Below, piece after piece: positions 1,494-38,237 of a stretch of DNA of 38,763 nt. A program made the translations under genes and the position numbers. How positions within the stretch are numbered: position 1 is the stretch's first letter; each line of letters opens with the position of its first letter. The notes below the pieces were generated by a model. It was given only the letters and a program-made list of their open reading frames with translations. It did no database searches and had not been told where the DNA came from. This DNA is from Thermoanaerobaculia bacterium (GTDB lineage: Bacteria > Acidobacteriota > Thermoanaerobaculia > Multivoradales > UBA5704), in assembly GCA_044226625.1 (NCBI GenBank), contig JBGAGQ010000057.1, positions 1-38,763 on the forward strand. The letters run 5' to 3'.

Positions 1494-1991
1494 ATGATCC
1501 GGCGGGGTGACGTGGCAAAAGTGCATTCGGCGTCGCGGGCGCTGCTCGCAATCGCGCTTTGGATCTCGGTCGCGGGCTGCGCGAAGCTGCCGCGCGCGCG
1601 TTCGTTCTTCGGCGGCTCTTTCCGGATGGACGTGACGGTCGAGGCCGGAATCAACCAGAACAGTCCGGTGCCGGTCGAGGTCGTCCTGGTTTACGACTCC
1701 TCTCTCTTCGGCACGCTCTCGAAGATGACCGCCGCGCAATGGTTCGCCGGTCGCGCTCAATTTCTTCTCGACAACCCGGAGGGGGACGGCTGGAGCTCTC
1801 AGATGTGGCAATGGGTGCCGGGTGAAACGGTCACCTCGCCCGAGATCTCCTATCGACCCGGAATCAACGGCGCGATCCTCTTTGCCGGCTACTTTTCGCC
1901 CGGCGCGCATCGGGCGATCTTCCAGCCGTTCCACGACCAGAGACTGACCCTTCATTCGACCGATTTCTCGCTGGTTCGAATCCGGGATTGA
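1494..1991 (+). CDS. tssJ: T6SS TssJ-like lipoprotein
   Basis: Signal peptide with lipobox VAGC, 'INQNSPVPVEVVLVYD' and 'ILFAGYFSPGAHR' segments, size (165 aa) and position directly before tssL-tssM; purine-rich RBS at 1481-1490. Confidence 0.65.
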   Translation: MIRRGDVAKVHSASRALLAIALWISVAGCAKLPRARSFFGGSFRMDVTVEAGINQNSPVPVEVVLVYDSSLFGTLSKMTAAQWFAGRAQFLLDNPEGDGWSSQMWQWVPGETVTSPEISYRPGINGAILFAGYFSPGAHRAIFQPFHDQRLTLHSTDFSLVRIRD

Positions 1992-1999
1992 ACTGCGCG

Positions 2000-2830
2000 A
2001 TGGCCGCCCCCTCCCTGCCGACCGATCCGGTGTTGCGCTTCCGCGCCTTCGCGGCGGAGGTGGCCGAGATTCTCGACCAGCTCGCGGCGGGCACGTTGCC
2101 GGTGCGCACCGCGCCTTCCGGCTCGGCGGGCTCGGGCGGCTCGAACACCGCGGCGACCGCCGCCTCGATGGCCGCGTCGGGCGCGACCGCTCCGACAGCC
2201 ACCAGCGCCACGGCCTCTCCGCCGGCGATCTATGACGCGGTTCGCGTCCGCCTCGTACCGTTCCTCGCGCCGCCCGCGGCCGGAAGTGCGTCGAACCCGC
2301 TCACCGACATCTCGCGTTATCTGATGGCGACGTTCGGCGACGACACGTTTCTGAACCTCGACTGGGCGGGTCAGGTCGCCTGGCAGCGGTCGACACTCGA
2401 AAAGCAGTTCTTCGGCACCGAGGACGGAGCGACGGAGGTCCTCTCCCGGATCGACCAGCTGATCGCGGCTCCCGGACCTCGAGCCGTCCCCCAGGCGCGG
2501 ATGTACCTGATCGCGCTCGCCCTCGGCTTCGAAGGCGCGCTGCGGGGTACGACCGGTGCCGAGGCCGAGCTGGCGGAAAAGCGCCGGTCGCTCGGAGCGC
2601 TCATCGCGGCCGGCGATCCGCGCGATCCGGCCACGGCCGGGCGGCTGTTTCCCGACGCCTATCGCCACACGCTCGAAGGCGGCAAGCCGCAGACCCTGCC
2701 GCGCGCGGGCGTCTGGGCGCTCTCGCTGCTCCTGGTCCTCCTCGCCTGGTGGGCGATCTCTTGGCCGCTCTGGCGCGCGGGCACCGCCGAGCTCCGCTCC
2801 CTCCTCCAGACGATCCTGCCGGCGAGCTGA
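2000..2830 (+). CDS. tssL: DotU/TssL family T6SS inner-membrane protein
   Basis: 'YLMATFGDDTFL...W.....W....LEKQFFGT..G', 'MYLIALALGFEG..RG' and a single C-terminal TM helix; no OmpA domain. ATG at 2000 chosen; an alternative TTG at 1988 overlaps the tssJ stop. Confidence 0.9.
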   Translation: MAAPSLPTDPVLRFRAFAAEVAEILDQLAAGTLPVRTAPSGSAGSGGSNTAATAASMAASGATAPTATSATASPPAIYDAVRVRLVPFLAPPAAGSASNPLTDISRYLMATFGDDTFLNLDWAGQVAWQRSTLEKQFFGTEDGATEVLSRIDQLIAAPGPRAVPQARMYLIALALGFEGALRGTTGAEAELAEKRRSLGALIAAGDPRDPATAGRLFPDAYRHTLEGGKPQTLPRAGVWALSLLLVLLAWWAISWPLWRAGTAELRSLLQTILPAS

Positions 2831-5800
2831 TGGACGCCCTCTCTTCCACCTCGGCACCCTACCTGCTCCTCTGGGCCCTCGCGCTCGCGCTCGGGCTCGC
2901 ACTGGTGCTCTGGCTCGCGCTCCGGCATTCGCGCCGCGAGGGGGGGCTTCGAGAGGTGGCCGAGGATCCGTCGACCACGGTGGTCGATTTCTCCGGCGAA
3001 TCGAGCGACGCCGAGATCCGCGCGACTTTCTCGCGCGGCCTCGAGCTGCTCGCGCGCCTCGCTCCCGGGCGCAACGGCCGGTATCAGCTCCCGTGGTACG
3101 TGATGATCGGTGGCACGCCGCAGGAGAACGCCGAGATCCTCGCGAGCCTCCGGATCCCCTTGCCGTTCGGGGCGCCGCCGGGACCGGCGGGGCCTGTCTC
3201 GTGGTGGATCTTCGACCGCGCCGTGGTGATCGAGGCCTCGGGCGCGGCCTCGGCGGTCGATGCCGAAGGGGCTCCCGCGCCGGGCGCCTGGATGGAGCTG
3301 CTCCGATGCCTGCGCACCACCCGGCCGGCACGGCCGATCGATGGATTGGTCGTGGCGATCCCGGCCTCCGACCTCGAAGGGGTCGAACCGAGCTCGGCCG
3401 CGGTGCAGACCCGCTCGACCCTGTTGGCCACCCGGGCTGCGCAGCTCGTCGAGAGGCTCGGTTTCCGCCTACCGGTCCACGTCGCGATCACCGGCACCGA
3501 GACGCTCTCGGGCTTCTTGCCGACGGTCTCGACGATCGATCCGGAGGAGCGAGGGCAGATGCTCGCCTGGGCGAACGCCCAGGGGCTTTCCTCCGCCTAT
3601 TCGTCGGCCTGGGTGTCGGAGGCGATCGCGACGCTCGCCCGCGGCTTCGCCCGGTATCAGCTCGAGACGTTCGCGGAGGCGACGCTGCCGGACGACGTGC
3701 GCCAGGTCTACCTCTTCCCGCAGCAGGTGGCGGCGCTCGAGCCGGCGCTCTCGGCTTACCTGAACCGGATCTTCCTGCCGAGCAGCGACGCCGAGCCCTC
3801 CTTCCTGCGCAGCATCGGCCTCTGCGGCAAGGCGTCGGCCGACCCAGCGGCATCGGCCGACACTCCGGAGACGCTCGCGAATTTCGGCTGGGCGCGCGGC
3901 GACGCGAGCTCCGGCTCTTCGACCAGCGCGGAGGTCTCGTTCGTCGAGGACTTGTTCGGGGCGAAGGTCTTTCCGGAGCGCGCGCTCGCCCGGCCGGCCG
4001 GCTCGACGGAGCAACGCCGGCTCAAGCTCGGCCACGTCCTGCGCGCGGCGACGGTGGTCGCGGCGCTCGCCGCGATCGTCGGTCTGCTCTACGGGCCGTA
4101 CCAGGTAGGCAAGAGGACGGGGGTGCTCGATCCCTGGCTCGAGCGCGCCTCGAGCCGCCTGCATGCCGATCCGGACGCCGGCGATGCGCTCGACTCCGAC
4201 CGCATCCTGCTCTCGGATCTCGGGGCGATCCGATCGTTCGAGGTGCAGACTTGGATGCTCCCGGCGTCCTGGGGCACCGGCGTCGATCGCGACGTGCGCG
4301 GGGCGATCTCGACCACCCACGTGGGAATCTTCCTGCCCGACGTCCGCAAGGGTCTCCTCGACCGGCGGACCGCCCTCGCTCGCGGCGCCGTCCCTCGCCC
4401 GGCGCCCAAGCAGCAGGGTGCGGGTGCGGTCGAATCGACCGGCGAGTTCCTCGACCTCGCGGGGTTCGCGCGTCGGCTCTCGGAGCTCGAGGCGCAGGCG
4501 CGGCGCTACGACACTTTCGCCGGCGGCCGGGGCCTGCCGGGTCGTCGGCTTCGCGACTTCGAGCAGCTCGCCCGCTTCGCGCTCGGTGTGACGTTCGCTC
4601 CGCCGACCTCCTCGGCGAAGACGTCCAATGCCCTGGCGCTTTCCACCGTCGCGCTGCCCGCCGATCAGGCGATCGCGATGGTGGCGCGGCCGGAGATGAC
4701 CGCCCGCGCGAACGCCTGGGTCGAAGCGCTGTTTCGGAAGATCTTCACCGCGAGCTGGGTACAGCTCGGCGCGAACGATCTCGCGGCGAGCATCGATGCT
4801 TTCGGTCGCACGCAGAGCGCGGGGGAGAAGGCGTTCCTCGAGATGCGCCGGCTGCTCGCGAAGATCCAGGCGTTCGAGCAGACGCTCGCCCGCCCCGATC
4901 AGCAATGGCTCGCCGCCGCGACCTTCTCACCCGGCGCCGCCTACGACGCGACGGTCGCCTCGCTCTCGCAGTCCGCCTGGCTCGGCTCGACCTTCGGTCC
5001 GTCGATGAACGCCCGTGGGAACCGGGGCTTCCGCCAGATGCAGAACGACCTGATCGCGGTCGAATCGGTGTTCGTCGGGCCCATCCTCGCCACCGCGGAC
5101 GGCCGGCCGAAGCTCGCGCTCGCGCCGGAGGCGGCGATGCTCGAGCCGGCGATCCAGGGGCTGCTCAACGAGCCGTTCGTGCCGCAGGATCCCGCCCAGA
5201 TCTGGCAGATGAATCTGCCGCCGGGCCAGCGCCTGACCTGGGACACGCAACGCTTGTCCGATACCGCCCTCCTGGGGGCGGCGTTCGACTCGTTCCTCGC
5301 CAAAGGTCTCCAGGTCTTCCCGCAGTCGCTTCGGCGCACCGCGGCTGAGGCAGCGCGCAACCGATTGAGTCTGGACGTCTCGAACAACCTAGCCGCCGCG
5401 CAGATCTTCACCCCCGCGCCCCCGCCGGCCGGTCAGACTCCGCTCGAGCTGGCGGTTCAGCAGGACGTGGCGAACTTCTCGACCTCGTCCACCTATCTCG
5501 GGCAGATCCTCGCCTATGGCCAGCGTCTCAATCTGTCCTATGGGGTCCGGCCGCTCGCCAACCTGATGGGACAGCAAGGGGTCTTCATCCTGCGCGAGGT
5601 CGAACGCCTGATGATCGCGTCGCGCCTCTATCTGCCGCAGCCGCGGAGCCTCGAACAGTGGAGCGGCGACGCGCCGCCTTCGCCCGACGCCTTCGGCGTG
5701 TCGAGCGCGTCGGCGCTGACCACCTACCTCGGGAGCCAGCGCAGCCGGGCGAGCCAGATCGCCAACGTCTACGCTCAGCCGGTTCTCGCGGGCCTGCAGC

Positions 5801-6987
5801 CGGCGACGGCTTACGTGCCCTCGATCGCGCTCCATCCTGTGGTCGGCGAATGGAACGCGATCCTCGCCGCGCTCAAGGCGGCGGGGCAGCAGACCGCCGG
5901 AGGCTCCGTCGCCGACCTCGAAGGATTCATCTCCGGGCCGATGGCGCAGATGACCGGAGCGACCTGCAAGAGCTATTTCTACGCCCCGCCGACGAGCTCG
6001 AACCCGACCTCTTGCGCTCAGGTCGCCCCGAGCGAGCCGGTCGATCCACCCGCGGGAAGAGATTTCTTCCGCCGCCGCGAGCGCGAGCTGTGGGCGACGC
6101 TCGGCGACCGTTGCGATCAGTTGGTTGCCCAGAACGCGCGGAGCGGCTACTGTGCTTTGCGCGCCTCGTTCGACAAGGAGCTCGCGCGCCAGTTTCCGTT
6201 CGCCGAGCACGATCCGCTCACGAACGGCGCCGAGGCGCAGCCCGCCGCGATCGCCCGTTTCTACCAGGTCTACGACCAGAAGCAGCCGCTGGTCGTGCAG
6301 GCGCCCACGGGAACCTTCGGTCCGCAGCAGCGCGAGATCGACGATTTCCTGGAGCGGATGTGCGAGGCGCGGCCGCTCTTTGCGACCTACCTCGCCAAGC
6401 CGAGTCAGGCGCCCATGCTCGACTTCAACGTCGTCTTCCGCGTCAATCGAAATCGAGAGATCGAAGGGCGACAGATCTTCAACTGGTCGCTCCGCTCGGG
6501 CGACCAGACGATCGCGACGACCAACCCCGGATCCACCGCGACCGCGCCGCCGTCGGCGGGGAGCCCGGCGAGCTCCGCCGACACGACGGTCGGCCGCTGG
6601 ACCTACGGACAGCCGGTCGCCGTCGCCTTCACCTGGGCCCAGAACTCACCGTGGCAGCCGGCGACGCGCGGCCTCGAGCCCAACGCCTCCTCCGACGGCA
6701 CGGTCGTCACCTATTCGTACGCCAACGCCTGGTCGCTCCTCTCGCTGCTGCGCAACCAGGAAGGCCAGGCGGCGGACTTTCCCGGTCTCACCGATCCCGA
6801 TCCGCAAACGTTGCGCTTCCTGATCAAGACCGTTCCCGACGCGCCACCGACGCCTCCGTTGCCGGACGACGTGCGGGTCTACGTCCGCGTGGCGCTCCAA
6901 TCGTCGGATCAGAAACAGCGTCTCGTCATGCCCACCTCATGGTGGACCACGGCGGCGCCGGCCTACGTCTGCCGACAGAATCCGTAG
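2830..6987 (+). CDS. tssM: IcmF/TssM family T6SS membrane-complex protein
   Basis: N-terminal TM, 'RYQLPWYVMIG', 'WWIFDRAVVIE', 'W..LL..L...RP.RPIDGLVVAIP', 'LGFRLPVHV..T..E...GF', second TM, long periplasmic part with 'FPF'. ATG at 2830 overlaps the tssL TGA (TGATG coupling). Confidence 0.9.
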   Translation: MDALSSTSAPYLLLWALALALGLALVLWLALRHSRREGGLREVAEDPSTTVVDFSGESSDAEIRATFSRGLELLARLAPGRNGRYQLPWYVMIGGTPQENAEILASLRIPLPFGAPPGPAGPVSWWIFDRAVVIEASGAASAVDAEGAPAPGAWMELLRCLRTTRPARPIDGLVVAIPASDLEGVEPSSAAVQTRSTLLATRAAQLVERLGFRLPVHVAITGTETLSGFLPTVSTIDPEERGQMLAWANAQGLSSAYSSAWVSEAIATLARGFARYQLETFAEATLPDDVRQVYLFPQQVAALEPALSAYLNRIFLPSSDAEPSFLRSIGLCGKASADPAASADTPETLANFGWARGDASSGSSTSAEVSFVEDLFGAKVFPERALARPAGSTEQRRLKLGHVLRAATVVAALAAIVGLLYGPYQVGKRTGVLDPWLERASSRLHADPDAGDALDSDRILLSDLGAIRSFEVQTWMLPASWGTGVDRDVRGAISTTHVGIFLPDVRKGLLDRRTALARGAVPRPAPKQQGAGAVESTGEFLDLAGFARRLSELEAQARRYDTFAGGRGLPGRRLRDFEQLARFALGVTFAPPTSSAKTSNALALSTVALPADQAIAMVARPEMTARANAWVEALFRKIFTASWVQLGANDLAASIDAFGRTQSAGEKAFLEMRRLLAKIQAFEQTLARPDQQWLAAATFSPGAAYDATVASLSQSAWLGSTFGPSMNARGNRGFRQMQNDLIAVESVFVGPILATADGRPKLALAPEAAMLEPAIQGLLNEPFVPQDPAQIWQMNLPPGQRLTWDTQRLSDTALLGAAFDSFLAKGLQVFPQSLRRTAAEAARNRLSLDVSNNLAAAQIFTPAPPPAGQTPLELAVQQDVANFSTSSTYLGQILAYGQRLNLSYGVRPLANLMGQQGVFILREVERLMIASRLYLPQPRSLEQWSGDAPPSPDAFGVSSASALTTYLGSQRSRASQIANVYAQPVLAGLQPATAYVPSIALHPVVGEWNAILAALKAAGQQTAGGSVADLEGFISGPMAQMTGATCKSYFYAPPTSSNPTSCAQVAPSEPVDPPAGRDFFRRRERELWATLGDRCDQLVAQNARSGYCALRASFDKELARQFPFAEHDPLTNGAEAQPAAIARFYQVYDQKQPLVVQAPTGTFGPQQREIDDFLERMCEARPLFATYLAKPSQAPMLDFNVVFRVNRNREIEGRQIFNWSLRSGDQTIATTNPGSTATAPPSAGSPASSADTTVGRWTYGQPVAVAFTWAQNSPWQPATRGLEPNASSDGTVVTYSYANAWSLLSLLRNQEGQAADFPGLTDPDPQTLRFLIKTVPDAPPTPPLPDDVRVYVRVALQSSDQKQRLVMPTSWWTTAAPAYVCRQNP

Positions 6988-7168
6988 TCACGCGGGTCGC
7001 GAATCGAAAAGGATTTCGCCGCCCGAGATGGAACGGAGACGCACCTGAGATAAAACCGCGGCACCGGCAACTTCTCTCCTGAAACCAGACATCTACGTCC
7101 CCGCGAGCAGTCGGGACGGAGATTCGATCCGCGGTGGCCGCGCGCCGCCGCCTCAGGAGAGGTCTGTC

Positions 7169-8635
7169 ATGTTCGATCGTTTTTCCATCCGCGGCGGTCT
7201 TCGAAACGTCTCGTCGTTCGCCTTCTTCACCGTCTTCGGCCTTCTCTTCGGCACATGGGGCGCCGCGCCTGGTCGCGCGCTCGTCTGTCCGGATCTCGAG
7301 TTCAAGTGCGCTCTCGGCGACACGTTCGAGATCGAGACGCATTTCGCGTTTCCCCACCATTGCGAGGCGAACGGCAGCGTCCAGCTCGCGGCGAGCCGCT
7401 ACTGCGACATGCAGGGCTGCGTCGGTGCGTTGCAGCGGACGGACGGCTGCAGCATCCCGGTCCCGGGGATGAATGCGATCTACAACGGTCTTTTCAAATC
7501 CGCCTGCGACCTGCACGACATCTGTTACGACACCGTCGGCACGACCCAGAGGGAATGCGACGCGAACTTCTACGACAACCTGATGGCGCTGTGCAGGCTC
7601 CCGGGCCTCGGCAAGTTGCGCTTCGGGGACTGCTACCTCAACGCGAACCTGATGTGGGCGGCGGTATCGGCCGTCGGCAAGAGCCATTTCGTCGACGGCC
7701 AAAAATGGGCGTCGGTCAACTGCTCGGAGGTCGACGTGCCGCCTCTTCCCGCTCCATTGGTCGATGACCCCATCCGGCTGCGTCCCAAGAAGAGCGGCGA
7801 CTTGGCGCTGTGCATCGACGCCGGCCGGATCGACGACGGCATGCCGGCTCATCTCTGTCCCGACGCGGGCGTCCCGAGCCAGCGCTGGACGATCCATCGA
7901 GAGACAAAGGACTACTACTCGTTGAAAGCCGATCTCTCCGAGAAGTGCCTCGACGTCAAAGACGGCAGCAAGGCCGACGGCGGCGCGATCCAGCAGTGGG
8001 TCTGCAGCACGTTCGACAACTCCAACCAGCGTTGGGCGCTCCTCCTCGACGGCTCCGACGGCTGGGTGCTACGCGCGAAGGTCTCCGGAAAGTGCCTCCA
8101 GTACAACACGCAGAACAACACCGTCGAGCAGAGGAGCTGCAGCGGCGGCGACGACCAGAGGTGGTTCCTGGAGAACGATCTGGAAGAGGGACTGCCTCCC
8201 CTCGGCAAAGATCTCCAGATCGTCGGCGTGGATTCCGACAAGGCGATCGGCATCGAAGGCTCGAAGATGGAGAACGGCGCGGGAACCGTTCTCGTCTATA
8301 CGGACCGCGACCAGAAGTCGCAGATTTGGCAGATCGAAACCGCCCCGAGCGGCTTCTTCTACCATCTGAAAGTCAAGCATTCGAACAAGTGCCTCGATCT
8401 CAAGGATGGGGGCACCGTCCAGGGCACTCGCGTACAGCAGGTGGACTGCGACGATGACGACCCGAACCAGCTCTGGGACTTGGAAGAAGTTTCCGGAGGT
8501 TGGTTGATCATGGCGCAGGTATCGGGGTTCTGCCTCGACGCCAAGGGTATCCAAGCCGCTGCGGGAACCGAGGTCTACTCCTGGCCCTGCACCGCCGCAA
8601 AGAACCAGGTCTGGCAGCTCAAGCCCCTGCAGTAA
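7169..8635 (+). CDS. Secreted protein: Cys-rich phospholipase A2-like domain plus two ricin-B lectin (beta-trefoil) domains
   Basis: Sec-type signal peptide; 'DGCSIP...FKSACDLHDICYDT...CDANFYDNL...C' resembles the secretory PLA2 catalytic His-Asp motif; C-terminal QxW repeats (SQRW, NQRW, DQRW, SQIW, NQLW, NQVW) with 'KCLD' motifs; AGGAGA RBS. Confidence 0.8.
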   Translation: MFDRFSIRGGLRNVSSFAFFTVFGLLFGTWGAAPGRALVCPDLEFKCALGDTFEIETHFAFPHHCEANGSVQLAASRYCDMQGCVGALQRTDGCSIPVPGMNAIYNGLFKSACDLHDICYDTVGTTQRECDANFYDNLMALCRLPGLGKLRFGDCYLNANLMWAAVSAVGKSHFVDGQKWASVNCSEVDVPPLPAPLVDDPIRLRPKKSGDLALCIDAGRIDDGMPAHLCPDAGVPSQRWTIHRETKDYYSLKADLSEKCLDVKDGSKADGGAIQQWVCSTFDNSNQRWALLLDGSDGWVLRAKVSGKCLQYNTQNNTVEQRSCSGGDDQRWFLENDLEEGLPPLGKDLQIVGVDSDKAIGIEGSKMENGAGTVLVYTDRDQKSQIWQIETAPSGFFYHLKVKHSNKCLDLKDGGTVQGTRVQQVDCDDDDPNQLWDLEEVSGGWLIMAQVSGFCLDAKGIQAAAGTEVYSWPCTAAKNQVWQLKPLQ

Positions 8636-8652
8636 GGAAAGACGCCGAGGCG

Positions 8653-8695
8653 CCGGGTCCGGGTTCGATCGGACAACGAACCCGAGCCCGGTCTT
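8653..8695 (+). terminator. Putative terminator hairpin after the PLA2-lectin gene
   Basis: CCGGGTCCGGGTTCG ... CGAACCCGAGCCCGG (13/15 complementary) followed by TCTT. Confidence 0.4.
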
Positions 8696-8737
8696 CGAGT
8701 TGGAATCCGCGGCCCGACGCGGCGGTTCCGGAGGGGC

Positions 8738-30700: not shown

Positions 30701-32740
30701 GAGATCGGTTCGCTCGCGGTCCTCCTCCCCTCGGTGAGCCTTTGTCAGTGAGGGAGAAGTGACCGGGCCGGCAGAGCCGAGATCGGTTCGCTCAAGGCCT
30801 TCGCCGCCAGATTGAGCGCTCGCAGGTGAGACGGCAGGAACCTCGGTTTTGAGATCCGCGCTCCGCGTCGCCGAAATCGTTTGCGCTTCTTGCGGACCCA
30901 CTTCGAACTCAGCGAGGTGTGCCCTCTGGATCGGAAGACTCGAATCGGCCGATTCCCGCGTAGGGGCGGAGCTTGCCTCCGCCCGCGGCGGTCGCGGCTC
31001 TCGGGCGGAGGCCAGCTCCGCCCCTACGGCGTGCGAGTCCTCGTGCGGTGCCGTGGGAACGACGCGCTTCATCGCCTCCGAGGGAGGAAGCTGATCTCGA
31101 CCCGTGGGTGGCAGCTCGCTCGAACCCTGCGCAGGTCGAGCCGGGTGCCATTCGCCGGGCCGCTCGCCCTCCTCCTCCCTTCGGTGAGTTTTTGTCAGCG
31201 AGGGAGGGGTGGCCGGACCGGCCGAGCCGAGATCAAGTCGTTCGAGACCTTCGTCTCCTCGGTGAGCGCTTGCGGGCGAGACGTCAGAGTTCTTCCCTTC
31301 GAGATTCGCGCTCCGCGTCGGGCCGATCGTTGGCTGAGGAGCGGCATCTCTCCCTTCCCCCCATTGAAGAGGAGCCGGGCCAGAGGGCTTAGCTGCCGAA
31401 GCAGGCCGTTCTCCCGGTCCCTTGCCGTCCCTCTCGAAGGGCGATTGAGCCGTTTCCCGATTTTGCCCTTCGTTGCCAGCGGTCGCCCTCTGGACTGGAA
31501 GGCTAGATTCGGCACTTGCCTCCGCCCGCGGAGGTCTCGTCTCTCGGGCGGAGGCAAGCTCCGTCCCTACGTCGCGTGGGCCCTCGTCTGGCGCCACGCT
31601 CGGACCCTGTGCCGGCCGAACCGGATGCACTTCGCCGAGCCGCTCGCGATCCTCTTCCCCTCGGTGAGTTTTTGTCGCCAAGGGTGAGTTAGCCGAGCTG
31701 TTCGTGCCGAGATCGAGAGATGGGAGGCCTTCGTTCCCTCGGTGAGTTCTTGTCAGAGAGGGAGAGGTGGCCGGACCGCCAGTGTCGAGATCGGTTCGCT
31801 CGCGACCTTCGTCGCGTGGGTGAGCGGTTTCGGGCGAAGGGGCGGCGGCAGAGCTCTGTTTGCCCAGCGTCGATGTCGATTGAATCGTGGGCTGGGGAAC
31901 GTCTTGGCCTTCCTCTCCCGAGGGGAGAGCGGTCGGAGGAGATGGCCTAGCCGCCACCTCTGGCGGGACTGTCGTTCCTGCCTTCTCCCTGACGTCGCCT
32001 TCGTGTGCCCCTTGCGTTTCTCTCGGACCTTGTTCGGATTGGGCAGTATGGGACCTCTGGATCGGACTCGAATCGGCCGATCCCCGCGTAGGGGCGGAGC
32101 GTGCCGCCGCCCGCGGGGGCCTCGTCTCTCGGGCGGAGGCAAGCTCCGCCCCTACGTCGCGCGAGCCCTCGTCCGCCGCCGCCGCGCGAGGACCCTGCGC
32201 AGGCTGAGCCGGGTGCCCTTCGCCGAGCCGCTCGCTGCCCTCCTCCCCTCGGTGAGCTTTTGTTTTGGAAGGTGAAGTGGCCGAGCCGTCCGCGCGGCGA
32301 TCGAGCGATGGAAGGCCTTCGTTCTCTCCGTGAGATTCCGACGGCGAGCGATTTTCGCTATCCAGGCTCGTTGATTTCTGCTCGAGCTCTGAGGCTTGCG
32401 CCTTTTCCTCGGGCGCGCCGGGCCGCGGCGCTTCCGCTCCCCGCGGCCGATCGGGCCGAAGCCGCGCGGGCAGCGGCAGCTCGTCCTCGGCAAAGGATCG
32501 CTCCGGCTTCAGAGCTTCGGGCTCGGCCGGTCGGGCCCGCTCCGCCTTCCGGGCCGCTTCCCGCTCCCGTTCGAAAGCGCGCTCTTTCTCCTCCAGTCGT
32601 TGGGGCAGCGGCAGCGAGGGCCCTTCGGGCTCGAGGCCGAAAGGTCGCGTGTCCTCGGCGTATCGCGGGGCGATCCAGGGGCGGACCAGTGGCCCCAGGC
32701 CCAACGCCCGTTCGGCGAGCCGCGTGAAGAAGTCCGGCAT
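27776..32740 (-). CDS. Giant (1654 aa) low-complexity eCIS-associated protein with short ordered termini and a repeat-expanded disordered core
   Basis: Open frame of ~5 kb coupled to DUF4255; N-terminal 'MPDFFTRLAERALG' and C-terminal 'VRISIGRVEIR...PSLADYL' resemble termini of hypothetical proteins in this position of eCIS loci; core rich in P/S/T/E/A/R. Confidence 0.8.
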   Translation of the reverse strand: MPDFFTRLAERALGLGPLVRPWIAPRYAEDTRPFGLEPEGPSLPLPQRLEEKERAFEREREAARKAERARPAEPEALKPERSFAEDELPLPARLRPDRPRGAEAPRPGAPEEKAQASELEQKSTSLDSENRSPSESHGENEGLPSLDRRADGSATSPSKTKAHRGEEGSERLGEGHPAQPAQGPRAAAADEGSRDVGAELASARETRPPRAAARSAPTRGSADSSPIQRSHTAQSEQGPRETQGAHEGDVREKAGTTVPPEVAARPSPPTALPSGEEGQDVPQPTIQSTSTLGKQSSAAAPSPETAHPRDEGRERTDLDTGGPATSPSLTRTHRGNEGLPSLDLGTNSSANSPLATKTHRGEEDRERLGEVHPVRPAQGPSVAPDEGPRDVGTELASARETRPPRAEASAESSLPVQRATAGNEGQNRETAQSPFERDGKGPGERPASAAKPSGPAPLQWGEGRDAAPQPTIGPTRSANLEGKNSDVSPASAHRGDEGLERLDLGSAGPATPPSLTKTHRREEEGERPGEWHPARPAQGSSELPPTGRDQLPPSEAMKRVVPTAPHEDSHAVGAELASAREPRPPRAEASSAPTRESADSSLPIQRAHLAEFEVGPQEAQTISATRSADLKTEVPAVSPASAQSGGEGLERTDLGSAGPVTSPSLTKAHRGEEDRERTDLSTVPPATPPSLTEAHRGDEDLPPLDLGTDGSAASPSAKKTHRGEEDRERPVKEHPARLTLGSNERPPNLPDPIPPRQEHPHAVGTELASAREPRPPRAEARSAPTRDAADSSLPIQRAATIDAAEGLGRAQGASEGSSFGPETAVQAEAADLPSSPAPLPRGEGRQAVSRPTNPATRSVNPGETPSSTQAHRNGEDREHTVLGSADLATLPSLTAAHRGDEGHERTDLGTTGPATSPSLTRAHRRDEGLPPLDLATDDPVTSSSTAIAHRGEERLGEGQPTPPSRDSSDVPPAVRAQVPPKESAERVAASPQQGSRAVGSEPEGRPPRPEASSAPTRESANPSLPIQRTSTDADESSPTAGSFRENRSTGPIERTPETELTAQPSRSAPLQRDEERQAASWPTIPATPKANLDTEGSAASPTQAHRGDEGRERTDLDTVRSAIPTSQTRTRGGDVGQPPSDLGTNGSATSPSATRTHRGDEGRPPFDLGTDGSATSPSTTKAHRGEEDRHRVGEGRPSRPAQHSSELPPAHRAQLSSDSTERVVPAPQEGSHTVGAELASAQEPRTPRAEASSVPTWEAADSATQSRARQESAPTILRPTTRETTDSTIPIQPTRVGGPATDADLTHSEILQEPLDTKADQKIPKASAQGRRAGESADQVPSSLPETPIAARSERDERAFPIPPLRRSKESHTTPLEPSVRPAQSADLGAADSAAPPSLTSHGRDAGHQRPGLEPTAPATPRSNNLSPAPQPNPHAQQAAESPAGATARRGAIPWPERPAHASSPELSPPAARAPIQRFSAEPAPPASLELTGALPVPPPSVEVTTAATEPASPARQASNLEEPPSSVLPHKGGGRKAPLIAEVDGPTDLESEALRPILPQAEEKIAALAPPPRRSTSPQEAPLESPPARHRSFEPERADAEGEQRQARPATVRISIGRVEIRVTETVKPPKPAPRRPSVPSLADYLAERRGRR
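28134..28171. repeat. C-run/G-run hairpin element inside the CDS
   Basis: CCTCCCCC-CTTGT-GGGGGAGG followed by ACCGAGGAGGGGGG; resembles small palindromic intergenic repeats. Confidence 0.55.
28974..29041. repeat. REPIN-like inverted GTAG-REP doublet (intragenic)
   Basis: GTAGGGACGGAGCTAGCCTCCGCCCG ... TGGGCGGAGGCAAGCTCCGCCCCTAC. Confidence 0.8.
29694..29749. repeat. REPIN-like doublet, right arm partly deleted (intragenic)
   Basis: GTAGGGGCGGAGCTTGCCTCCGGCCG ... GGGCTCCGACCCTAC; 12 bp shorter than the full copies. Confidence 0.7.
30387..30454. repeat. REPIN-like inverted GTAG-REP doublet (intragenic)
   Basis: GTAGGGGCGGACCTTGCCTCCGCCCG ... CGAGCGGAGGCAAGCTCCGTTCCTAC. Confidence 0.8.
30960..31027. 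repeat. REPIN-like inverted GTAG-REP doublet (intragenic, best preserved)
   Basis: GTAGGGGCGGAGCTTGCCTCCGCCCG-N16-CGGGCGGAGGCCAGCTCCGCCCCTAC. Confidence 0.85.
31515..31570. repeat. REPIN-like doublet, left arm partly deleted (intragenic)
   Basis: CTTGCCTCCGCCCG ... CGGGCGGAGGCAAGCTCCGTCCCTAC. Confidence 0.7.
32088..32155. repeat. REPIN-like inverted GTAG-REP doublet (intragenic)
   Basis: GTAGGGGCGGAGCGTGCCGCCGCCCG ... CGGGCGGAGGCAAGCTCCGCCCCTAC. Confidence 0.8.
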
Positions 32741-32779: not shown

Positions 32780-33463
32780 TCACTCCGAGAGCCTTTCGAG
32801 GTAGGCCTGTCGCCGGGCGGGGCTCATCGCCAGGATCTCGCTCTGGGGCCAGCCGTAGGCGCGCGCGAGGGTGTGGACCTCCCCCAGCAGCCGCTCGGAC
32901 TGCGCGGCGGTCTCGGTCCAGAAGAAGTGGCAGATGTCGAGGTAGGAGGACCAGCCGTGGCCGCAACGGGCGCAGGTGAGGCGCAGCTCCACCTCCGCCT
33001 GCGGATCGTCCGCCATCATCCGCTCGCCGAGCGCCTCGACGAGGGCTTCGGGCATCCGGTCGAGGACCTCGTGGGCGGGAACCGGCTCACCTTCGAGCGA
33101 GGCTTCGAGGATTGCGCGGCGGAGCAGCTCGAAACGCACGGAGGCCACGTCGCGGCGGTTGCCGGCCGTCGCGGCGACCAGGTCTCCTGCCGTGAGCAGC
33201 CGATAGCGGACCGACCAGCCGTCGTGAGCGAGCGTTCCTTCGAGCGGCGGCGGCGCTTCGCCTTCCGGCGTGTAGACGTCGCGGATCGGCAGGGTGAATT
33301 CGAGGCGGGAGTTGCAGACCGGGCACTCGGTCCGGCCGCGGAGGTCGGGCCCGAGCGACCGATCGCGAACCGCGAAGAGCCCGGCGTCCGCGCGGTCGGG
33401 GAGCGGGCGGTGCGCGCCGCGCTCCCAAACCTCGATCAGCCCCTCGGCGGACAGCGAGCGCAC
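32780..33463 (-). CDS. T4 gp26-like baseplate hub assembly protein with two CxxC motifs
   Basis: 'ECPVCNS', 'VRYRLLTAGDL', 'M..DDPQAEVEL.LTCARCGH.W...LDI..FFW', 'EVHTLARAYGW..SEILAMS..RRQAYL'. Confidence 0.8.
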   Translation of the reverse strand: MRSLSAEGLIEVWERGAHRPLPDRADAGLFAVRDRSLGPDLRGRTECPVCNSRLEFTLPIRDVYTPEGEAPPPLEGTLAHDGWSVRYRLLTAGDLVAATAGNRRDVASVRFELLRRAILEASLEGEPVPAHEVLDRMPEALVEALGERMMADDPQAEVELRLTCARCGHGWSSYLDICHFFWTETAAQSERLLGEVHTLARAYGWPQSEILAMSPARRQAYLERLSE

Positions 33464-33466
33464 GGC

Positions 33467-34021
33467 TTACGACGAGGGCTGCGTGAAGCTCGGCAGCGAC
33501 GGTGCGCTCACCGAGTCGTCGCGCGTCCAACCCTCGTTCTGCAGGGTGAGACTTTCGAGCGCCACGGCGTTGGCGCCGCCGTCCAGCTCGGGCATCGCGA
33601 TGTACTCCGAAGGCCAGCAGTTGAAGATGTAGTAGGACATCACCACCTGGCCGGCCTGGTTCATCAGCTGGATGTTGATGTCCTTGCGGAAGTCTTTGAG
33701 CGAGACTTCCTGGCCGAGCTTGCCGGTGTTCGGGTAGTACCAGATCTTGTTCGCCCACTGCTCGAAGGCGACGTCGAACGTGATCCCCCGTTCCAGCGTG
33801 ACCGGGCCGTACTCGGTCTGGCCGGGGAGGCGCCGCACGCCCTGGGGCGCTCCGCCCTCGCGCCACGAGGCGACCTGCGTGGTGCGGGTGAGCGCGCTCA
33901 CCTTGCTCACCATGGCGATGGGGGTGGTTCCCGGCGGCGTCGGGTTCGAGCCCCAGAACACCGCGAACTTGTAGTTCAGGAACGGGTCGACGAGACTGGT
34001 TGCGACGTTCGATGGCGCCAT
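33467..34021 (-). CDS. Contractile tail tube protein (T4 gp19-like; Afp1/5-like)
   Basis: 'DPFLNYKF.V', 'WREGG', 'LPGQTEYGPVTLERGIT', 'FRKDINIQLMN.AG..V..Y...NCWPSEY', 'VALESLTL..EG'. Confidence 0.95.
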   Translation of the reverse strand: MAPSNVATSLVDPFLNYKFAVFWGSNPTPPGTTPIAMVSKVSALTRTTQVASWREGGAPQGVRRLPGQTEYGPVTLERGITFDVAFEQWANKIWYYPNTGKLGQEVSLKDFRKDINIQLMNQAGQVVMSYYIFNCWPSEYIAMPELDGGANAVALESLTLQNEGWTRDDSVSAPSLPSFTQPSS

Positions 34022-34055: not shown

Positions 34056-35654
34056 TTACGACGTCTGTCCCGCGATCTGCTGGATCTGCAGGATGACGAA
34101 CTCGGCGGGTTGGACGGGGGCTACGCCGATCACGATGTTCACGATGCCCTGGTCGATGTCGGTCTGCGTCGTGGTGGTCGAGTCGACGTTGACGAAATAG
34201 GCCTGCGCGGCGCTCGCGCCGGCGAACGCCCCCTGCGAATAGAGCCCCGCGAGGAAGCTGCCGACCGAAACCCGGATGTTCGCCCACAGCGCTTCGTCGT
34301 TCGGCTGGAAGACGGTCCACTTCAAGCTCTGCTGGAGCGAAAGCTCGATGAAGTCGAGCAGGCGGCGAACCGGGATGTACTTCCACTGGCTGCTGATCTG
34401 GTCCGCCCCGGCGAGCGTACGGGCGCCCCAGGAGAGGTTGCCGAACACCGGGAACGAGCGGAGGGCGTTGATCCCGAGCGGGTTCAGCTGGCCGTTCTGC
34501 GCGTCCGAGATCTGCACCGCGACGTCCGCCCCCTGGAGCACCGAGTCGGTTCCGGCGGGCGCTTTCCACACGCCCTCGGTCGCGTCGATCCGGGCGTAGA
34601 CTCCGGCGAGCGTGCCGCTCGCGCCGACGTTCCGCGGTTGGAAGTTCGCGCTCGGGTCGGGGATCACGAGCCTCGGGAAGTAGACCGCCCCCGAGTAGTT
34701 GTCCTCGCCGAGGACGTAGGTCTGCGCCCAGGACTGCATCGCCTCGACGGTCACGAGGTTCTGCGGGATGTCGATGATGTAGAACGCCTTGCGGTCGCCG
34801 CAGAACTTGAGCGCCGCGGTCATCGCGTTCGCCATCTCGCCCGTCGAGACGCCGGCCTTCGCGGTCGCCGGCAGGCAGAGCGTGTTGAACACCGCCGGGG
34901 CGATCCGGTCGAGCGCGTCGAGATTCTGGTCTTGGGTGAGGACGCCGGGGCCGGGAATCGCGCCGTCCGCGCCGCCCGAAAGCGGAAACGAGATCGCGGG
35001 GGCGCCGGCCGCAGGGATGGAGGTCGACGTCACCGGAGCCCCGGCCGGTAGGGGGATGCGGATCAGCCGGGACGCGGAGTTGATCACTGCCGGGGCGTAC
35101 ATCGCGCTGGTCGGGTCGAGCGTCAGGTTGAGGTAGCTCTCCGAGCCCATCTGCCGCCCCTGGACCACTTCGGCGACCGCGAGGTTGAACGTCCCGGCGG
35201 CGACCGCCTGGGTGCCGACCTGCATCGGCGCCGAGATCGTGACTGTGAGGTTGTTGCCCCACGAACCGGGGTTCGCCGACTGGATCAGGAACCCCGCGCC
35301 GCTCGAGCTCGCAAGAGCGGCGAGCGCGCCGGCGGTCGAGTCGGTGTTCACCACCCGGACGATCCAGCCGATCAGTCCGCCGTTCAGGAAGTATTGGTAA
35401 GCGGCGTAAGTCGCCTCGCTGTTGCCGTCGATGCCGCCGTAAAGCCGCTGGAAATCGCTCCAGTTGTTGACCTGGAAGGCGACCGGCGTGAACGTCGGAT
35501 TCTGCAGATTCTGCGGATTGTCGGCGATGGTCACCGGGCCGCGGCGGAAATAGTCGACGAAAGCGGTCGACGACGTGGTGACGCCGGTGACCACCTGCTG
35601 CGTGCTGGGCAGCTCTTCGATGTAGATGCCGGGATAGCTGACTTGTACGGGCAC
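34056..35654 (-). CDS. Contractile tail sheath protein 2 (Afp2/3/4-like)
   Basis: 'YPGIYIEEL', 'AVYFPRL', 'SGTLAGVYARID...GVWKAPAG', 'LNPLGINALRSF', 'WGARTL', 'WKYIPVRR', 'PAEFVILQI'; GTG start with AGGAGAG RBS. Confidence 0.95.
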   Translation of the reverse strand: MPVQVSYPGIYIEELPSTQQVVTGVTTSSTAFVDYFRRGPVTIADNPQNLQNPTFTPVAFQVNNWSDFQRLYGGIDGNSEATYAAYQYFLNGGLIGWIVRVVNTDSTAGALAALASSSGAGFLIQSANPGSWGNNLTVTISAPMQVGTQAVAAGTFNLAVAEVVQGRQMGSESYLNLTLDPTSAMYAPAVINSASRLIRIPLPAGAPVTSTSIPAAGAPAISFPLSGGADGAIPGPGVLTQDQNLDALDRIAPAVFNTLCLPATAKAGVSTGEMANAMTAALKFCGDRKAFYIIDIPQNLVTVEAMQSWAQTYVLGEDNYSGAVYFPRLVIPDPSANFQPRNVGASGTLAGVYARIDATEGVWKAPAGTDSVLQGADVAVQISDAQNGQLNPLGINALRSFPVFGNLSWGARTLAGADQISSQWKYIPVRRLLDFIELSLQQSLKWTVFQPNDEALWANIRVSVGSFLAGLYSQGAFAGASAAQAYFVNVDSTTTTQTDIDQGIVNIVIGVAPVQPAEFVILQIQQIAGQTS

Positions 35655-35690
35655 GTTGCTCTCCTCGCTCTCTCGATCGCCTTACCTAGG

Positions 35691-38237
35691 TCACGACGCC
35701 GACTGACCGGCCATCAGCTGGAACTGCAGGATCACGAACTCGGCGGGCTTAACCGGCGCGATGCCGATCACCACGTTGACGATGCCCTGGAGGATGTCGG
35801 TCGGCGTGGTCGTGGTCGAGTCCGCGCGGACGAAGAACGCCTGGTCCTGCGTCTGCCCTTGGAGCGCGCCCTGCGCCCACAGGCCGGCGAGGAACGTGCC
35901 GATCTCGGAGCGGAGGTTCGCCCACAGCGGCTCGGCGTTCGGCTCGAACACGGCCCATTTGAGGCTCTGGTCGAGCGAGAGCTCGATGAAGTCGGTGAGG
36001 CGCCGGACCGGGATGTATTTCCACTCGCTGTCGATCTGGTCGGCCCCCGCGAGCGTCCGCGCCCCCCAGGAGATGTTGCCGAAGATCGGGAACGTGCGCA
36101 GGCAGTTGATACCGAGGGGATTCAGCTGGCCGTTCTCGGCATCGGTCGTCTGCACCGCGGGCGAGGCGCCCTGGAGCACGGCGGTGGTGCCGGCCGGCGC
36201 CACCCAGACGCCCGCCTGCGTGTCGTTCCGAGCGTAGACCCCGGCGAGCGTGCCGCTCGCGCCGACGTTCCTCGGTCGGTAGCCGTTGATCGGGTCGGGC
36301 ATCACCAGCCGCGGGTAGTAGACCGCTGCGTGCACGTTGTCCTGCGACAGGAGTTGGGCGTCGTTGGCGAACTGCTGCATCGCCGCGACGTTCGTGGTCG
36401 CGGGGGGGATGTCCACCAGGAAGAACGCCTTGTGGCTGTCGCAGTACTGGATCGCGTTGGCGAAAATCCCTTGGATCGCCTGGGGCGTGAGCGTCGCGAT
36501 CGCCGGCATGGACAGCAGGTTGAACGTGTTCGGCGCGATCGAATCGAGCGGCGCGAGCGGGTTCCCCGTGGCGTAGGCGCTCGAGATCAGGTTCCCCCCG
36601 TTGGTCTCCGCACCATCGCTGCCGCCCGAGAAGGCGAGGCCGATCGGCCGCGAAGGCGGGGTGAGCCAGACGCCGGTAGCGCCCGCGGCCGGAGGGGGAG
36701 CGGTCGCCGTGACGAGCTGCGCCGTCGAGAGGACGCGCGAGACGAAACTCCCCGCGTTCGGGTTGCTGGAGGTGAGGTTGGTGAAGCTCTCGGTCGCCTG
36801 GATGCGGCCGTTCACGACCGCCTGGGCGGTCAGGTTGAACGCACCCGCGCTCGTGCCGGGTGTGAGCGTCACGACGATGTTGTTGCCCCAGACGCCCGGG
36901 TTCGCCGCCGCGAGCTGGAAGCTTCCGGCCGCCGGTCCGCTGCTGGCCGCGGGGGGCGCGGCCGCGCCGCCGACCGGCTTGATCGAGATCGCCTGGTTCC
37001 CGGCCGCCACGACCTGACCGTTGGTATCGAGCCCTACCACCTGGATCGTCGCGGCGGTCGTGCCGTTCGGCACCGGGAAATCAGCGATGGCGACCGTGGC
37101 GGTGAGCGTCGCGGCGGGGATCGGCGTCGGAGGCGTGCTCTTGAGCGGGTTGAAGGTCGCTCCGCCGTCGGTCGACAGGCGGATCGCGTAGGTGGCCGGC
37201 GTCGCGCCGGTGGGCGCGGTCCAGGTCACCGTCACCGGCCCCGTCGTCGAAAGGTCTACCGTGTCGTTCGCGGCGGGCGCCGTCAAGGGGATCTGCGGTC
37301 CCGATTCGAGCGTGATCGTTCCCGACGTGCCGGCCGCCACGGGGTTGCCGAGAGCGTCGCGGCCGACGACCTGGAACTGCACCGAGGAGGTGGTGCCCAC
37401 CGCCGGCGCGGGCAGGTTCGGGACGTTCGCCGTCAGGGCGTCGCCCGGAATCGTCGCGGGGGAGGTTGCGATCGGCGCGAAAGTCGCCCCCGAATCGGTG
37501 GAGATCAGGATCGCGTAGCTTTCCGGCGCCGTCGTGGGCTTGGTCCAGGTCACCGCGACCGGCAGCCCGCTCGGCAGGTTGATGGTGCCGGTCGGGGCGG
37601 TGACGGTGAGCGTCGAGCCCGCGCCCGACGGAAGGATCGGGAAGGCCGCGCTGTCGCCGCTGGCGATCAGGTTGCCGTTCGCGTCGTTGAGGATCAGCCG
37701 GACGACCCCGCTCGCCGCCGCGGTCAGGCTCGGCAGCGTGAGGGAGAAAGGCGTCGAGGCCGGCGCGAACGGGTTCTTGCCGCTGCCGCTCGCCTTGGCG
37801 GTGGTGAACGTCCGGCCGCCGTCGGTCGAGAGCAGCGCGGTGATCTTCGCGTTGGCCGGCGGATTCGGGGCGCTGTACGCCACGTTCACCGTGCCGCCCG
37901 AGGTCTGCGCGCCGCCGCCGGGAGAGGTGACCGCGATCGTCCCGCTGGCCGCCGCCGATTTCGCGGTCGTCGGATCGACCAGGCGGATGATCCAGGCGAT
38001 CTGGCCGCCGTTCAGGAAGAACTGGTAGACGCCGTAGCTCGCTTCGCTGCGAGTGTCGAGCCCGCCGAAGATGCGCTGGAAGTCGTTCCAGTTGTCGACC
38101 TGGGTCGCCAGGTTCACCGGGCCGCGCGGGAAGAAGTCGACGAACGCGGTCGCCGAGGTGCTGACGCCGGTGACGGTGTGGGCGCTACTCGGGATTTCCT
38201 CGATGTAGACGCCAGGAGAGGACACGGGAACGGTCAT
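35691..38237 (-). CDS. Contractile tail sheath protein 1 with three inserted Ig-like repeats
   Basis: Same sheath N- and C-terminal signatures ('PGVYIEEI', 'WGARTL', 'WAVFEPN', 'PVKPAEFV') plus a ~320-aa insert absent from sheath 2; GAGGAGG RBS. Confidence 0.95.
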   Translation of the reverse strand: MTVPVSSPGVYIEEIPSSAHTVTGVSTSATAFVDFFPRGPVNLATQVDNWNDFQRIFGGLDTRSEASYGVYQFFLNGGQIAWIIRLVDPTTAKSAAASGTIAVTSPGGGAQTSGGTVNVAYSAPNPPANAKITALLSTDGGRTFTTAKASGSGKNPFAPASTPFSLTLPSLTAAASGVVRLILNDANGNLIASGDSAAFPILPSGAGSTLTVTAPTGTINLPSGLPVAVTWTKPTTAPESYAILISTDSGATFAPIATSPATIPGDALTANVPNLPAPAVGTTSSVQFQVVGRDALGNPVAAGTSGTITLESGPQIPLTAPAANDTVDLSTTGPVTVTWTAPTGATPATYAIRLSTDGGATFNPLKSTPPTPIPAATLTATVAIADFPVPNGTTAATIQVVGLDTNGQVVAAGNQAISIKPVGGAAAPPAASSGPAAGSFQLAAANPGVWGNNIVVTLTPGTSAGAFNLTAQAVVNGRIQATESFTNLTSSNPNAGSFVSRVLSTAQLVTATAPPPAAGATGVWLTPPSRPIGLAFSGGSDGAETNGGNLISSAYATGNPLAPLDSIAPNTFNLLSMPAIATLTPQAIQGIFANAIQYCDSHKAFFLVDIPPATTNVAAMQQFANDAQLLSQDNVHAAVYYPRLVMPDPINGYRPRNVGASGTLAGVYARNDTQAGVWVAPAGTTAVLQGASPAVQTTDAENGQLNPLGINCLRTFPIFGNISWGARTLAGADQIDSEWKYIPVRRLTDFIELSLDQSLKWAVFEPNAEPLWANLRSEIGTFLAGLWAQGALQGQTQDQAFFVRADSTTTTPTDILQGIVNVVIGIAPVKPAEFVILQFQLMAGQSAS

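Follow-up and report, generated by a model that had tools for sequence, protein, structure and literature searches.

Why would the membrane complex of a type VI secretion system (T6SS) stand beside an extracellular contractile injection system (eCIS)? The question is raised by a stretch of 38,763 nucleotides, hereafter the window, which is the complete contig C53 of a metagenome bin (6.6 Mb in 133 contigs, 97.9% complete, 5.5% contamination). Its GC content is ~0.70, and close homologues carry the label Thermoanaerobaculia, phylum Acidobacteriota. A tssJ-like gene, tssL and tssM on the plus strand face an eCIS operon on the minus strand, and a sequence-only reading of this DNA had suggested that the eCIS baseplate might dock on TssJLM. 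Our answer, to which we give somewhat better than even chances, is that TssJLM became detached once from a T6SS tail and has been kept in Thermoanaerobaculia as an accessory of an eCIS lineage, most likely as its firing dock.

The tssJ-tssL-tssM trio and the missing T6SS tail

The trio had been recognized from the sequence as a three-gene operon, and this assignment is now backed by DotU and IcmF domains, a lipobox and a TssJ fold:

1494-1991, plus strand: TssJ-like outer-membrane lipoprotein, 165 aa (lipobox ...VAGC; TssJ fold in the model)
1988-2830, plus strand: TssL (DotU family), tail-anchored (PF09850, 4e-22; TIGR03349, 1e-18; ATG at 2000 a possible start)
2830-6987, plus strand: TssM-like protein, 1385 aa (IcmF-related_N PF14331, 2e-41; TIGR03348 over residues 31-454 only)

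The lipoprotein has no match in Pfam or NCBIfam. Its lipobox cysteine, Cys29, is invariant in 10 homologues, and when its AlphaFold model (pLDDT 84) was compared with the PDB using Foldseek, the top 10 matches were all TssJ/SciN/Lip chains (6ixh_A, 3zhn, 4y7o_C, 4a1r and 3rx9 among them), with E values of 8e-7 to 5e-4 and TM-scores by target of 0.61-0.67. TssL has a single C-terminal transmembrane segment (residues 240-258). The TssM-like protein is laid out as a transmembrane segment (12-30), a cytoplasmic IcmF_N domain, a second transmembrane segment (403-421) and a periplasmic part of ~960 aa; textbook TssM has three transmembrane segments, and two were detected here. Past residue 452 it has no Pfam match, and the IcmF_C/ImcF-related domains (PF06744, PF06761) were not detected. 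The TssMs of complete T6SS loci in the sister clade likewise lack IcmF_C matches, and the window TssM is homologous to them over its full length at 26-29% identity, its periplasmic part aligning to theirs throughout. Homologues of all three genes are found in complete T6SS loci ordered tssJ-tssK-tssL-tssM-tssA-tssB-tssC-hcp-tssE-tssF-tssG-vgrG, in which those of the lipoprotein gene lie upstream of tssK. Given its domains, its transmembrane topology, the TssJ fold and these homologues, the trio is a predicted T6SS-type membrane complex with a TssM of a non-canonical subfamily.

This T6SS-i subtype, with a TssM lacking IcmF_C matches (loci L006, L008, L010, L012, L014 and L016 and many genomes of the class), is widespread in Thermoanaerobaculia and extends to some Proteobacteria, and a second, canonical-like TssM type (~220 bits to IcmF_N) is found in other families of the class. 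Genes for FadL-like outer-membrane, TIG/PKD-domain and SPOR-domain proteins recur upstream of tssJ (L009, 1046-5966; L011, 4928-8586; L005, 1915-6176; L010, 5447-6451; L017), and in L017, from Burkholderiales, TssM itself has a SPOR domain. Such proteins may be peptidoglycan-anchoring accessories of the TssM subfamily.

The sequence-only reading had noted the absence of T6SS tail genes from the window, with the caveat that the rest of a T6SS could lie elsewhere in the genome. A Pfam search of the whole genome gave no match to TssK, VipB, TssF or Hcp (PF05936, PF05943, PF05947, PF05638), and tblastn of the genome with TssK, TssA, TssB, TssC, Hcp, TssE, TssF and VgrG from the sister loci gave no match either. 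The TssG query matched only within its C-terminal cNMP-binding part, the matches of the ClpV query were ClpB/ClpA-like, housekeeping Clp ATPases, and IcmF_N is present in a single copy in the 6.6 Mb. A T6SS tail elsewhere in the genome, which would have refuted the idea, was thus not found in a bin that is 97.9% complete.

A trio without its tail could be the decaying remnant of a lost T6SS. Besides the absent tail genes, the missing IcmF_C match in Pfam and the loss of Walker A from the window TssM, whose P-loop reads GGTPQENAE, fit such decay, and the lost Walker A also counts against the docking proposal. However, full-length frames of the three genes are intact in all carriers, and dN/dS between the window and loci L002/L004 is 0.24-0.33 for tssM, 0.18-0.22 for tssJ and 0.25-0.26 for tssL: all three genes are under purifying selection. 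The T6SS-linked sister TssMs also lack IcmF_C matches, and some of them lack Walker A. As dN/dS is low and frames are full-length in a deep clade whose two subclades share only ~27% TssM identity, the trio is not a decaying relic, and we regard decay as barely credible. In an N-terminal alignment, subclade 2 retains Walker A, whereas the window subclade and several T6SS-linked sisters have lost it; since it is kept or lost on both sides, the motif was rejected as a marker of the eCIS-linked TssM clade.

Co-inheritance with one eCIS lineage

Facing the trio, the minus strand carries from 38237 to 9260 a complete Afp/PVC-like eCIS operon (Pfam/NCBIfam), in agreement with the ~29-kb operon of the earlier reading, and tblastn identified it as the sole eCIS of its genome:

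35691-38237, minus strand: second, longer sheath, 848 aa, with extra N-terminal domains (PF04984, PF17482)
34056-35654, minus strand: sheath, 532 aa (PF04984, PF17482)
33467-34021, minus strand: tail tube, gp19/Afp1-like (PF06841, 1e-34)
32780-33463, minus strand: T4_baseplate/baseplate-hub-like protein (PF12322; phrog_150)
27776-32740, minus strand: putative tape measure, 1654 aa (by position and size only; no family match)
24499-27606, minus strand: AAA+ ATPase with winged-helix domain, Afp15-like (PF00004, PF22977)
24095-24502, minus strand: 135-aa ORF of no family (no matches; orthologue in genome G229 only)
23448-24098, minus strand: DUF4157 'eCIS core' protein with HExxH (PF13699, 1e-27)
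22731-23444, minus strand: CIS_tube protein (PF19266)
22428-22715, minus strand: 95-aa ORF between the 396-aa gene and the CIS_tube gene (no Pfam match)
21215-22405, minus strand: conserved 396-aa eCIS protein, perhaps hub-like (no Pfam/PHROG match; orthologues in every eCIS locus compared)
20120-21181, minus strand: spike with VgrG/Afp8-like OB domain (PF04717, 3e-18)
19720-20082, minus strand: gp25-like wedge protein, Afp9/TssE-like (PF04965, 1e-14)
17246-19858, minus strand: Baseplate_J protein, Afp11-like, used as eCIS tree marker (PF04865; TIGR02243, 4e-75)
13089-17249, minus strand: large baseplate protein, 1386 aa (TIGR02243 C-terminal part, propeller-like insert)
10839-13058, minus strand: Tail_P2_I baseplate wedge protein, Afp12/TssG-like (PF09684, TIGR02242)
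9260-10834, minus strand: tail-fibre/baseplate-anchor protein, DUF6519 with inserted LamG, 3' end cut (PF20129, PF13385)

Neither a tail terminator (Afp16/Pvc16_N) nor a tape measure (CIS_TMP) had a Pfam match, and position alone marks out the 1654-aa and 135-aa ORFs as candidates; PHROGs contributed only the labels 'baseplate hub' and 'baseplate wedge'. Short stretches of the putative tape-measure gene (28125-28171, 30958-31028 and 32085-32156) recur on other contigs at 85-96% identity and look like repetitive coding sequence. By eye, the 95-aa ORF looks similar to the small LysM/tail-X-like genes known from eCIS operons. At its right end (38421-38763), the window overlaps contig C23:1-343 at 98.8% identity, and as C23 runs into housekeeping genes (M20 peptidase, MmyB-like regulator), the operon begins near the window end.

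To see how the two blocks are distributed, we compared 16 loci with relatives of the window TssM, taken from a one-genome-per-species collection. Six are complete T6SSs (L006, L008, L010, L012, L014, L016), five have eCIS genes beside tssL-tssM and lack tssK and tssA (L004, L007, L009, L011, L015), and the flanks of the other five are too short or uninformative (L002, L003, L005, L013, L017). TssK was found in 7/16 of these genomes and DUF6519 in 9/16; eight of the nine TssK-less genomes have DUF6519, and the ninth (G012) has an eCIS baseplate gene. In an even sample of the class, IcmF_N is found in 63 of 401 genomes (62 over the cut-off) and TssK in 58, and DUF6519 was counted in 53, among them the unpublished G195. 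Each TssK genome of this sample has IcmF_N ~2 kb distant. The four genomes with IcmF_N and no TssK (G000, G229, G031, G329) all have DUF6519, which in three of them lies on the same contig within 13 kb of tssM. In contrast, 13 TssK-positive genomes also have DUF6519, near tssM in 0/13; in the one closed genome among these, G413, 513 kb separate tssM from DUF6519.

In total, TssJLM without TssK is carried by 12 genomes: G000, G001, G002, G229 (= G003), G004, G006, G008, G010, G012, G014, G031 and G329. TssK was found in 0/12 and VipB (TssC) in 0/12 ARRANGEMENTS, and an eCIS baseplate gene in 12/12. The named carriers all belong to class Thermoanaerobaculia, including 'Candidatus Multivoradales', and the bin of one carrier is unclassified. 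Of 331 genomes sampled from the phylum and searched, G000 and G031 alone match the periplasmic part of the profile.

Phylogenies of both blocks were then compared. In a TssM tree (36 rows, 1340 columns, IQ-TREE quick, LG+G4), the TssK-less TssMs group together in a single clade (SH-aLRT 81), whose sister group is made up of T6SS-linked TssMs, likewise non-canonical, and which lies apart from the canonical-like TssMs. Without distant rows (26 rows, 1298 columns, quick) support for this clade is 99, and with the root on two gammaproteobacterial loci it is nested among T6SS-linked lineages. A tree of eCIS Baseplate_J, built on 835 columns and 43 rows out of 40 genomes, groups 11 rows of TssK-less carriers in one clade (99); every operon with a physical link to tssJLM is among them, and G197 and G297 contribute two more rows. 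Thus all 11 of the 12 TssK-less carriers that could be placed fall into a single eCIS clade, which was seen in only 6/401 genomes of the class. The additional eCIS copy in each of G329 and G006 lies outside this clade, as does the eCIS of the same-genus genomes G057 and G169, which have no TssJLM. The grouping is equal in the two trees: (G329,G010), (G008,G006), G014 with these, G031 apart, and the window group. As far as such trees can tell, the simplest reading is one ancient event in which TssJLM left its T6SS and joined one eCIS lineage, followed by co-inheritance and at least one loss (G197/G297).

Complete eCIS operons adjoin tssJLM in G229, G008, G010 and G031, in differing arrangements. 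Usually the two blocks converge, the eCIS operon with its fibre end towards the end of tssM, and in G229 both blocks lie on one 118-kb contig, where the equivalents of window positions 9258 and 9260 are 3.9 kb apart. In G008, tssL-tssM stand between ATPase/DUF4157 genes and fibre/baseplate genes; in G010, tssM is followed by a DUF4157 gene and a pentapeptide-repeat gene; and in G031 the blocks are separated by genes for a PAAR protein, a methyltransferase, a radical-SAM protein and a DUF4157 protein. The operon of G329 reads tssJ-DUF4157-tssL-tssM, with DUF4157 at the site of tssK, and the structural eCIS operon of the linked clade is on another contig. The DUF4157 proteins beside tssJLM in L007, L009, L011 and G329 form a subfamily with 55-62% mutual identity. 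A metagenome scan, which yielded only 5 loci, contained contigs with DUF4157-tssL-tssM (L095) and ATPase-tssL-tssM (L096). Such varied arrangements argue against a merely frozen neighbourhood. The linkage that the sequence-only reading had proposed to look for across genomes is therefore found as co-occurrence, as adjacency in several distant genomes and as matching trees. After tssM, two distant eCIS-linked loci share an ORF pair (111 aa, then 356-385 aa) without Pfam match (L009, 14226-15736; L015, 4683-6099).

Several observations weigh against a dock that serves this eCIS. In G001 the blocks are on different contigs, ~95 kb extending beyond the fibre gene on the eCIS contig, and a metagenome locus (L099) with a TssM 76% identical to that of the window has no eCIS gene in the 9.3 kb after its glyoxalase gene; linkage in the window's own subclade is loose. 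G197 and G297, of one genus, have an eCIS of the linked clade and no IcmF_N, and in G297 the region beyond the fibre gene holds unrelated genes, so a linked-clade tail can exist without the dock. Moreover, every genome used is a metagenome bin, relatives do not count as independent cases, and the trees support co-inheritance rather than contact, as shared vertical descent could give the same match. Both G197 and G297 (G197:C49, G297:C25; L085-L087) are ~10-Mb genomes that also have a second, ordinary eCIS; they look like a natural loss of the dock, useful for comparison.

The same observations bear on a second explanation, in which TssJLM without TssK performs a separate envelope function that has nothing to do with the eCIS, and the two merely travelled together by vertical descent or on one genomic island. 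The loose linkage in the window subclade (G001, L099) and the recurrence of FadL-like, TIG-domain and SPOR-domain genes upstream of tssJ speak for it, and as the carriers all belong to one class, the matching trees may be trivial. It sits badly, however, with the presence of an eCIS baseplate gene in every carrier, 11 of them in a clade so rare in the class, with tssLM embedded among eCIS genes in rearranged orders in subclade 2, and with the lack of any such linkage for the 13 T6SS-linked TssMs in eCIS-holding genomes. We consider an unrelated function quite unlikely. Overall, the data support a functional, co-inherited pairing of TssJLM and eCIS.

The junction at 9260 and the flanking genes

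Besides the two blocks, the window contains the following genes:

3-953, plus strand: outer-membrane efflux protein fragment
1094-1336, minus strand: GIY-YIG domain gene, 81 aa, divergent from tssJ (7e-16)
7169-8635, plus strand: secreted phospholipase A2 (PLA2) with ricin-lectin repeats, 488 aa (PLA2G12-like phospholipase A2 domain, three ricin-B lectin repeats, signal-like N-terminus)
8738-9268, plus strand: glyoxalase

The sequence-only reading placed the eCIS operon only two genes away from the trio and cautioned that a junction at ~9260 may have brought the loci together. Homology to G229, of the same genus (L004), runs through the glyoxalase gene to window position 9258 and resumes at 9260 inside the DUF6519 gene, skipping 3.9 kb of G229 that include the C-terminal ~490 fibre residues with a Kelch propeller. 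The fibre homology to G229 stops at residue 570, and the apparent last 60 codons of the window fibre ORF (9083-9259) are antisense of the glyoxalase gene. Contig C91 (2.7 kb, same bin) holds an exact copy of 9121-9260 (140 bp, 100%) and then continues like the relatives, with a second glyoxalase, an aldo-keto reductase and HxlR. We also compared Logan contigs from four public runs over 7000-11500; no statement draws on runs X3-X7, which contain small shares of the stretch. In run X1, which represents the stretch best and may be its source, and in run X8, from another study, contigs from either side cease to match exactly at 9260 and then differ from the window, and none of the contigs of the four runs bridges 9260, although contigs can drop rare variants, so that a minor deletion variant may exist there.

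The join 9259/9260 is thus unsupported. As no contig bridges it, both sides diverge at 9260 and the fibre gene is cut, the spacing of two genes is probably an assembly artefact, which weighs against any argument from closeness in the window itself; the caution about a misassembly was well placed. With 3.9 kb more between the blocks in G229, the true distance between tssM and the eCIS operon in the window organism is probably several kilobases larger. One could go further and take the whole neighbourhood for an assembly artefact, the blocks not being close in their own genome, since an alternative continuation exists and no independent contig bridges the join. However, the same-genus G229, an independent assembly, holds both blocks on its 118-kb contig, and such an artefact would touch distance only, not co-occurrence; we think it very improbable. 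As G229 holds the two on one contig and four further genomes have the blocks adjacent, the misassembly does not carry the argument.

The divergent gene that had been seen to bound the trio upstream is the GIY-YIG gene, and the DNA of its region is 75-83% identical across four relatives. The PLA2-lectin gene is missing at the equivalent site in L002, L004 and L099, where the glyoxalase gene directly follows tssM, and its local GC content is 0.63-0.64 compared with ~0.71 elsewhere. It is probably a recent insertion encoding a Sec-secreted lectin-lipase outside the conserved module. An Rfam search of the window gave zero matches.

A proposed firing dock and its place among known systems

How would a T6SS membrane complex and an eCIS work together? 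We infer docking, the contact partner and the firing route as follows. TssJ lipoprotein, tail-anchored TssL, and TssM across inner membrane and periplasm would form a T6SS-type trans-envelope complex, separated once from its T6SS tail with loss of TssK, TssA, TssBC, Hcp and TssEFG. An eCIS-type particle, equipped with a tape measure, an ATPase and a baseplate of its own, would assemble in the cytoplasm, and the baseplate would then seat on the cytoplasmic domains of TssL/TssM. Contraction would push tube and spike outward via a TssM/TssJ channel, and the outcome would be a cell-anchored, T6SS-like weapon with an eCIS tail. The genetic link to TssJLM, as read from these genomes, argues against free release without a membrane complex.

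The contact partner is possibly the DUF6519 fibre with Tail_P2_I, at the place of TssK with TssG. According to a 2026 catalogue of eCIS fibres, DUF6519 is their baseplate-anchor domain eBAP5, and where the baseplate is of Tail_P2_I type, a likeness to TssK is noted for the related eBAP3 fibres and one to TssG for Tail_P2_I (PMC12923769). Because of this likeness reported for related anchors, the DUF6519 fibre and Tail_P2_I are our first contact candidate; if so, the eCIS would already possess a counterpart of TssK at the proper position, and this would account for the loss of tssK. A profile-profile comparison of a DUF6519 alignment (52 rows) with TssK of the sister loci (6 rows) gave a probability of 0.1 and no similarity. 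When the DUF6519 model (pLDDT 83) was compared with the PDB using Foldseek and VIA-align wide, the inserted LamG domain filled both lists.

Two features of the eCIS itself tell against docking. An eCIS gene specific to the TssJLM-linked clade was not found, the same core genes being present in G057 (same genus) and G413, and as the linked-clade eCIS shares its core genes with ordinary eCIS, no dedicated adaptor gene emerges. In addition, a Kelch propeller is retained on the fibres, a feature apparently shared by most members of the large DUF6519 family; the orthologue in G229 has 1056 aa and a C-terminal Kelch propeller, and such a propeller would fit binding to outside targets. The propeller was rejected as a TssLM-specific head, as it is also found in the fibre of G297, which lacks TssJLM, and the DUF6519 consensus has Kelch-like repeats.

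TssJLM could instead serve the eCIS otherwise than as a firing dock, as an assembly or positioning platform, as an envelope-contact trigger or sensor, as an export channel for fibre, DUF4157 or effectors, or in lysis-independent release. The same co-inheritance evidence fits such a role, as do the distinct DUF4157 subfamily beside or inside the tssJLM operon in L007, L009, L011 and G329, the target-binding type of Kelch domain retained on the fibres and the existence of the eCIS clade without the module. However, the window subclade has no DUF4157 gene adjoining tssJLM, and the TssJM channel is far narrower than a complete particle with its sheath. To our knowledge, the only established role of TssJLM is that of dock and conduit for a contractile tail, and we judge a role other than docking unlikely. 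Taking TssJLM as a firing dock, we hold tentatively, at rather less than even chances, that the pairing is a further class of type VI-like system, in which a fixed-length, tape-measured eCIS tail fires from inside the cell through a captured T6SS-i-type TssJLM, and DUF6519 on Tail_P2_I plays the part of TssK on TssG.

Compared with the canonical T6SS-i, TssJLM here has the same three proteins in the same order, with DotU and IcmF_N domains, a TssJ fold with lipobox and the same transmembrane topology, and its sister TssM clade lies in complete T6SS loci. Unlike the canonical system, the carrier genomes lack TssK, TssA, TssB/C, Hcp and TssF/G, tssJ and tssL have no tssK between them, TssM lacks an IcmF_C match in its periplasmic part, and the partner tail is of eCIS type with a putative tape measure, an Afp15-like ATPase, DUF4157 and a fibre. 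In the T6SS type iii of Bacteroidota, a T6SS-type tail is paired with a novel membrane complex. That system likewise has a contractile tail paired with a different membrane complex, whereas the present pairing combines a T6SS-i-type membrane complex with an eCIS-type tail.

The tail operon resembles Afp/PVC-type eCIS in uniting sheath(s), gp19 tube, CIS_tube, gp25, Baseplate_J, Tail_P2_I, spike, AAA ATPase, DUF4157 and DUF6519 fibre. Such eCIS are described as freely released and in need of no membrane complex (PMC6899500), whereas here one eCIS clade is co-inherited with TssJLM. The T6SS type iv is described as close to eCIS and without IcmF (PMC6899500). Like this system of Amoebophilus and other cell-bound eCIS-like systems, the present one has an eCIS-like gene set and a proposed cell-anchored use; unlike them, it has TssJLM/IcmF. 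Precedents for eCIS-like particles with an accessory membrane protein or anchor are the Streptomyces CIS with its membrane protein CisA (PMC12237407) and the thylakoid-anchored tCIS (named in PMC12923769). Their anchors are unrelated, however, being a single membrane protein or baseplate extensions rather than an outer-membrane-spanning channel, and the Streptomyces system is cytoplasmic.

A full-text literature search, with most matches judged by title or abstract, returned no paper on an eCIS linked to TssJLM. Geller et al. (2021) report the removal of putative eCIS operons if T6SS COGs, for example COG3523 (TssM), lay within 10 kb (PMC8213781), so that TssM-linked eCIS loci were filtered out by design. 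The 2026 fibre catalogue excluded 18 clusters with 'T6SS distinctive' Pfams, in a list that apparently lacks the two domains present here, and in its supplementary text, as far as searched, the terms IcmF, DotU, Thermoanaerobaculia and Acidobacteri do not occur (PMC12923769). A term search of a 2025 metagenome CIS survey found TssJ, TssL and TssM unmentioned (PMC12210884). The keeping of the T6SS dock, without a T6SS tail, together with one eCIS lineage points to a hybrid injection system not described before.

T6SS and eCIS are taught as alternatives, the one with a membrane complex and firing from within, the other with no such complex and release of the particle, and a stable co-inheritance of TssJLM with eCIS blurs this divide. 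Discarding eCIS candidates near TssM, moreover, creates a blind spot that removes exactly such loci. The pairing makes the modularity and origin of T6SS testable, in particular the recognition of TssL/TssM by a baseplate without TssK, and it would offer an engineering chassis that combines eCIS cargo loading with contact-dependent delivery. If the dock reading is true, the pairing would be a natural experiment in exchangeable membrane-complex and tail modules, and a living analogue of a phage tail first acquiring IcmF/DotU.

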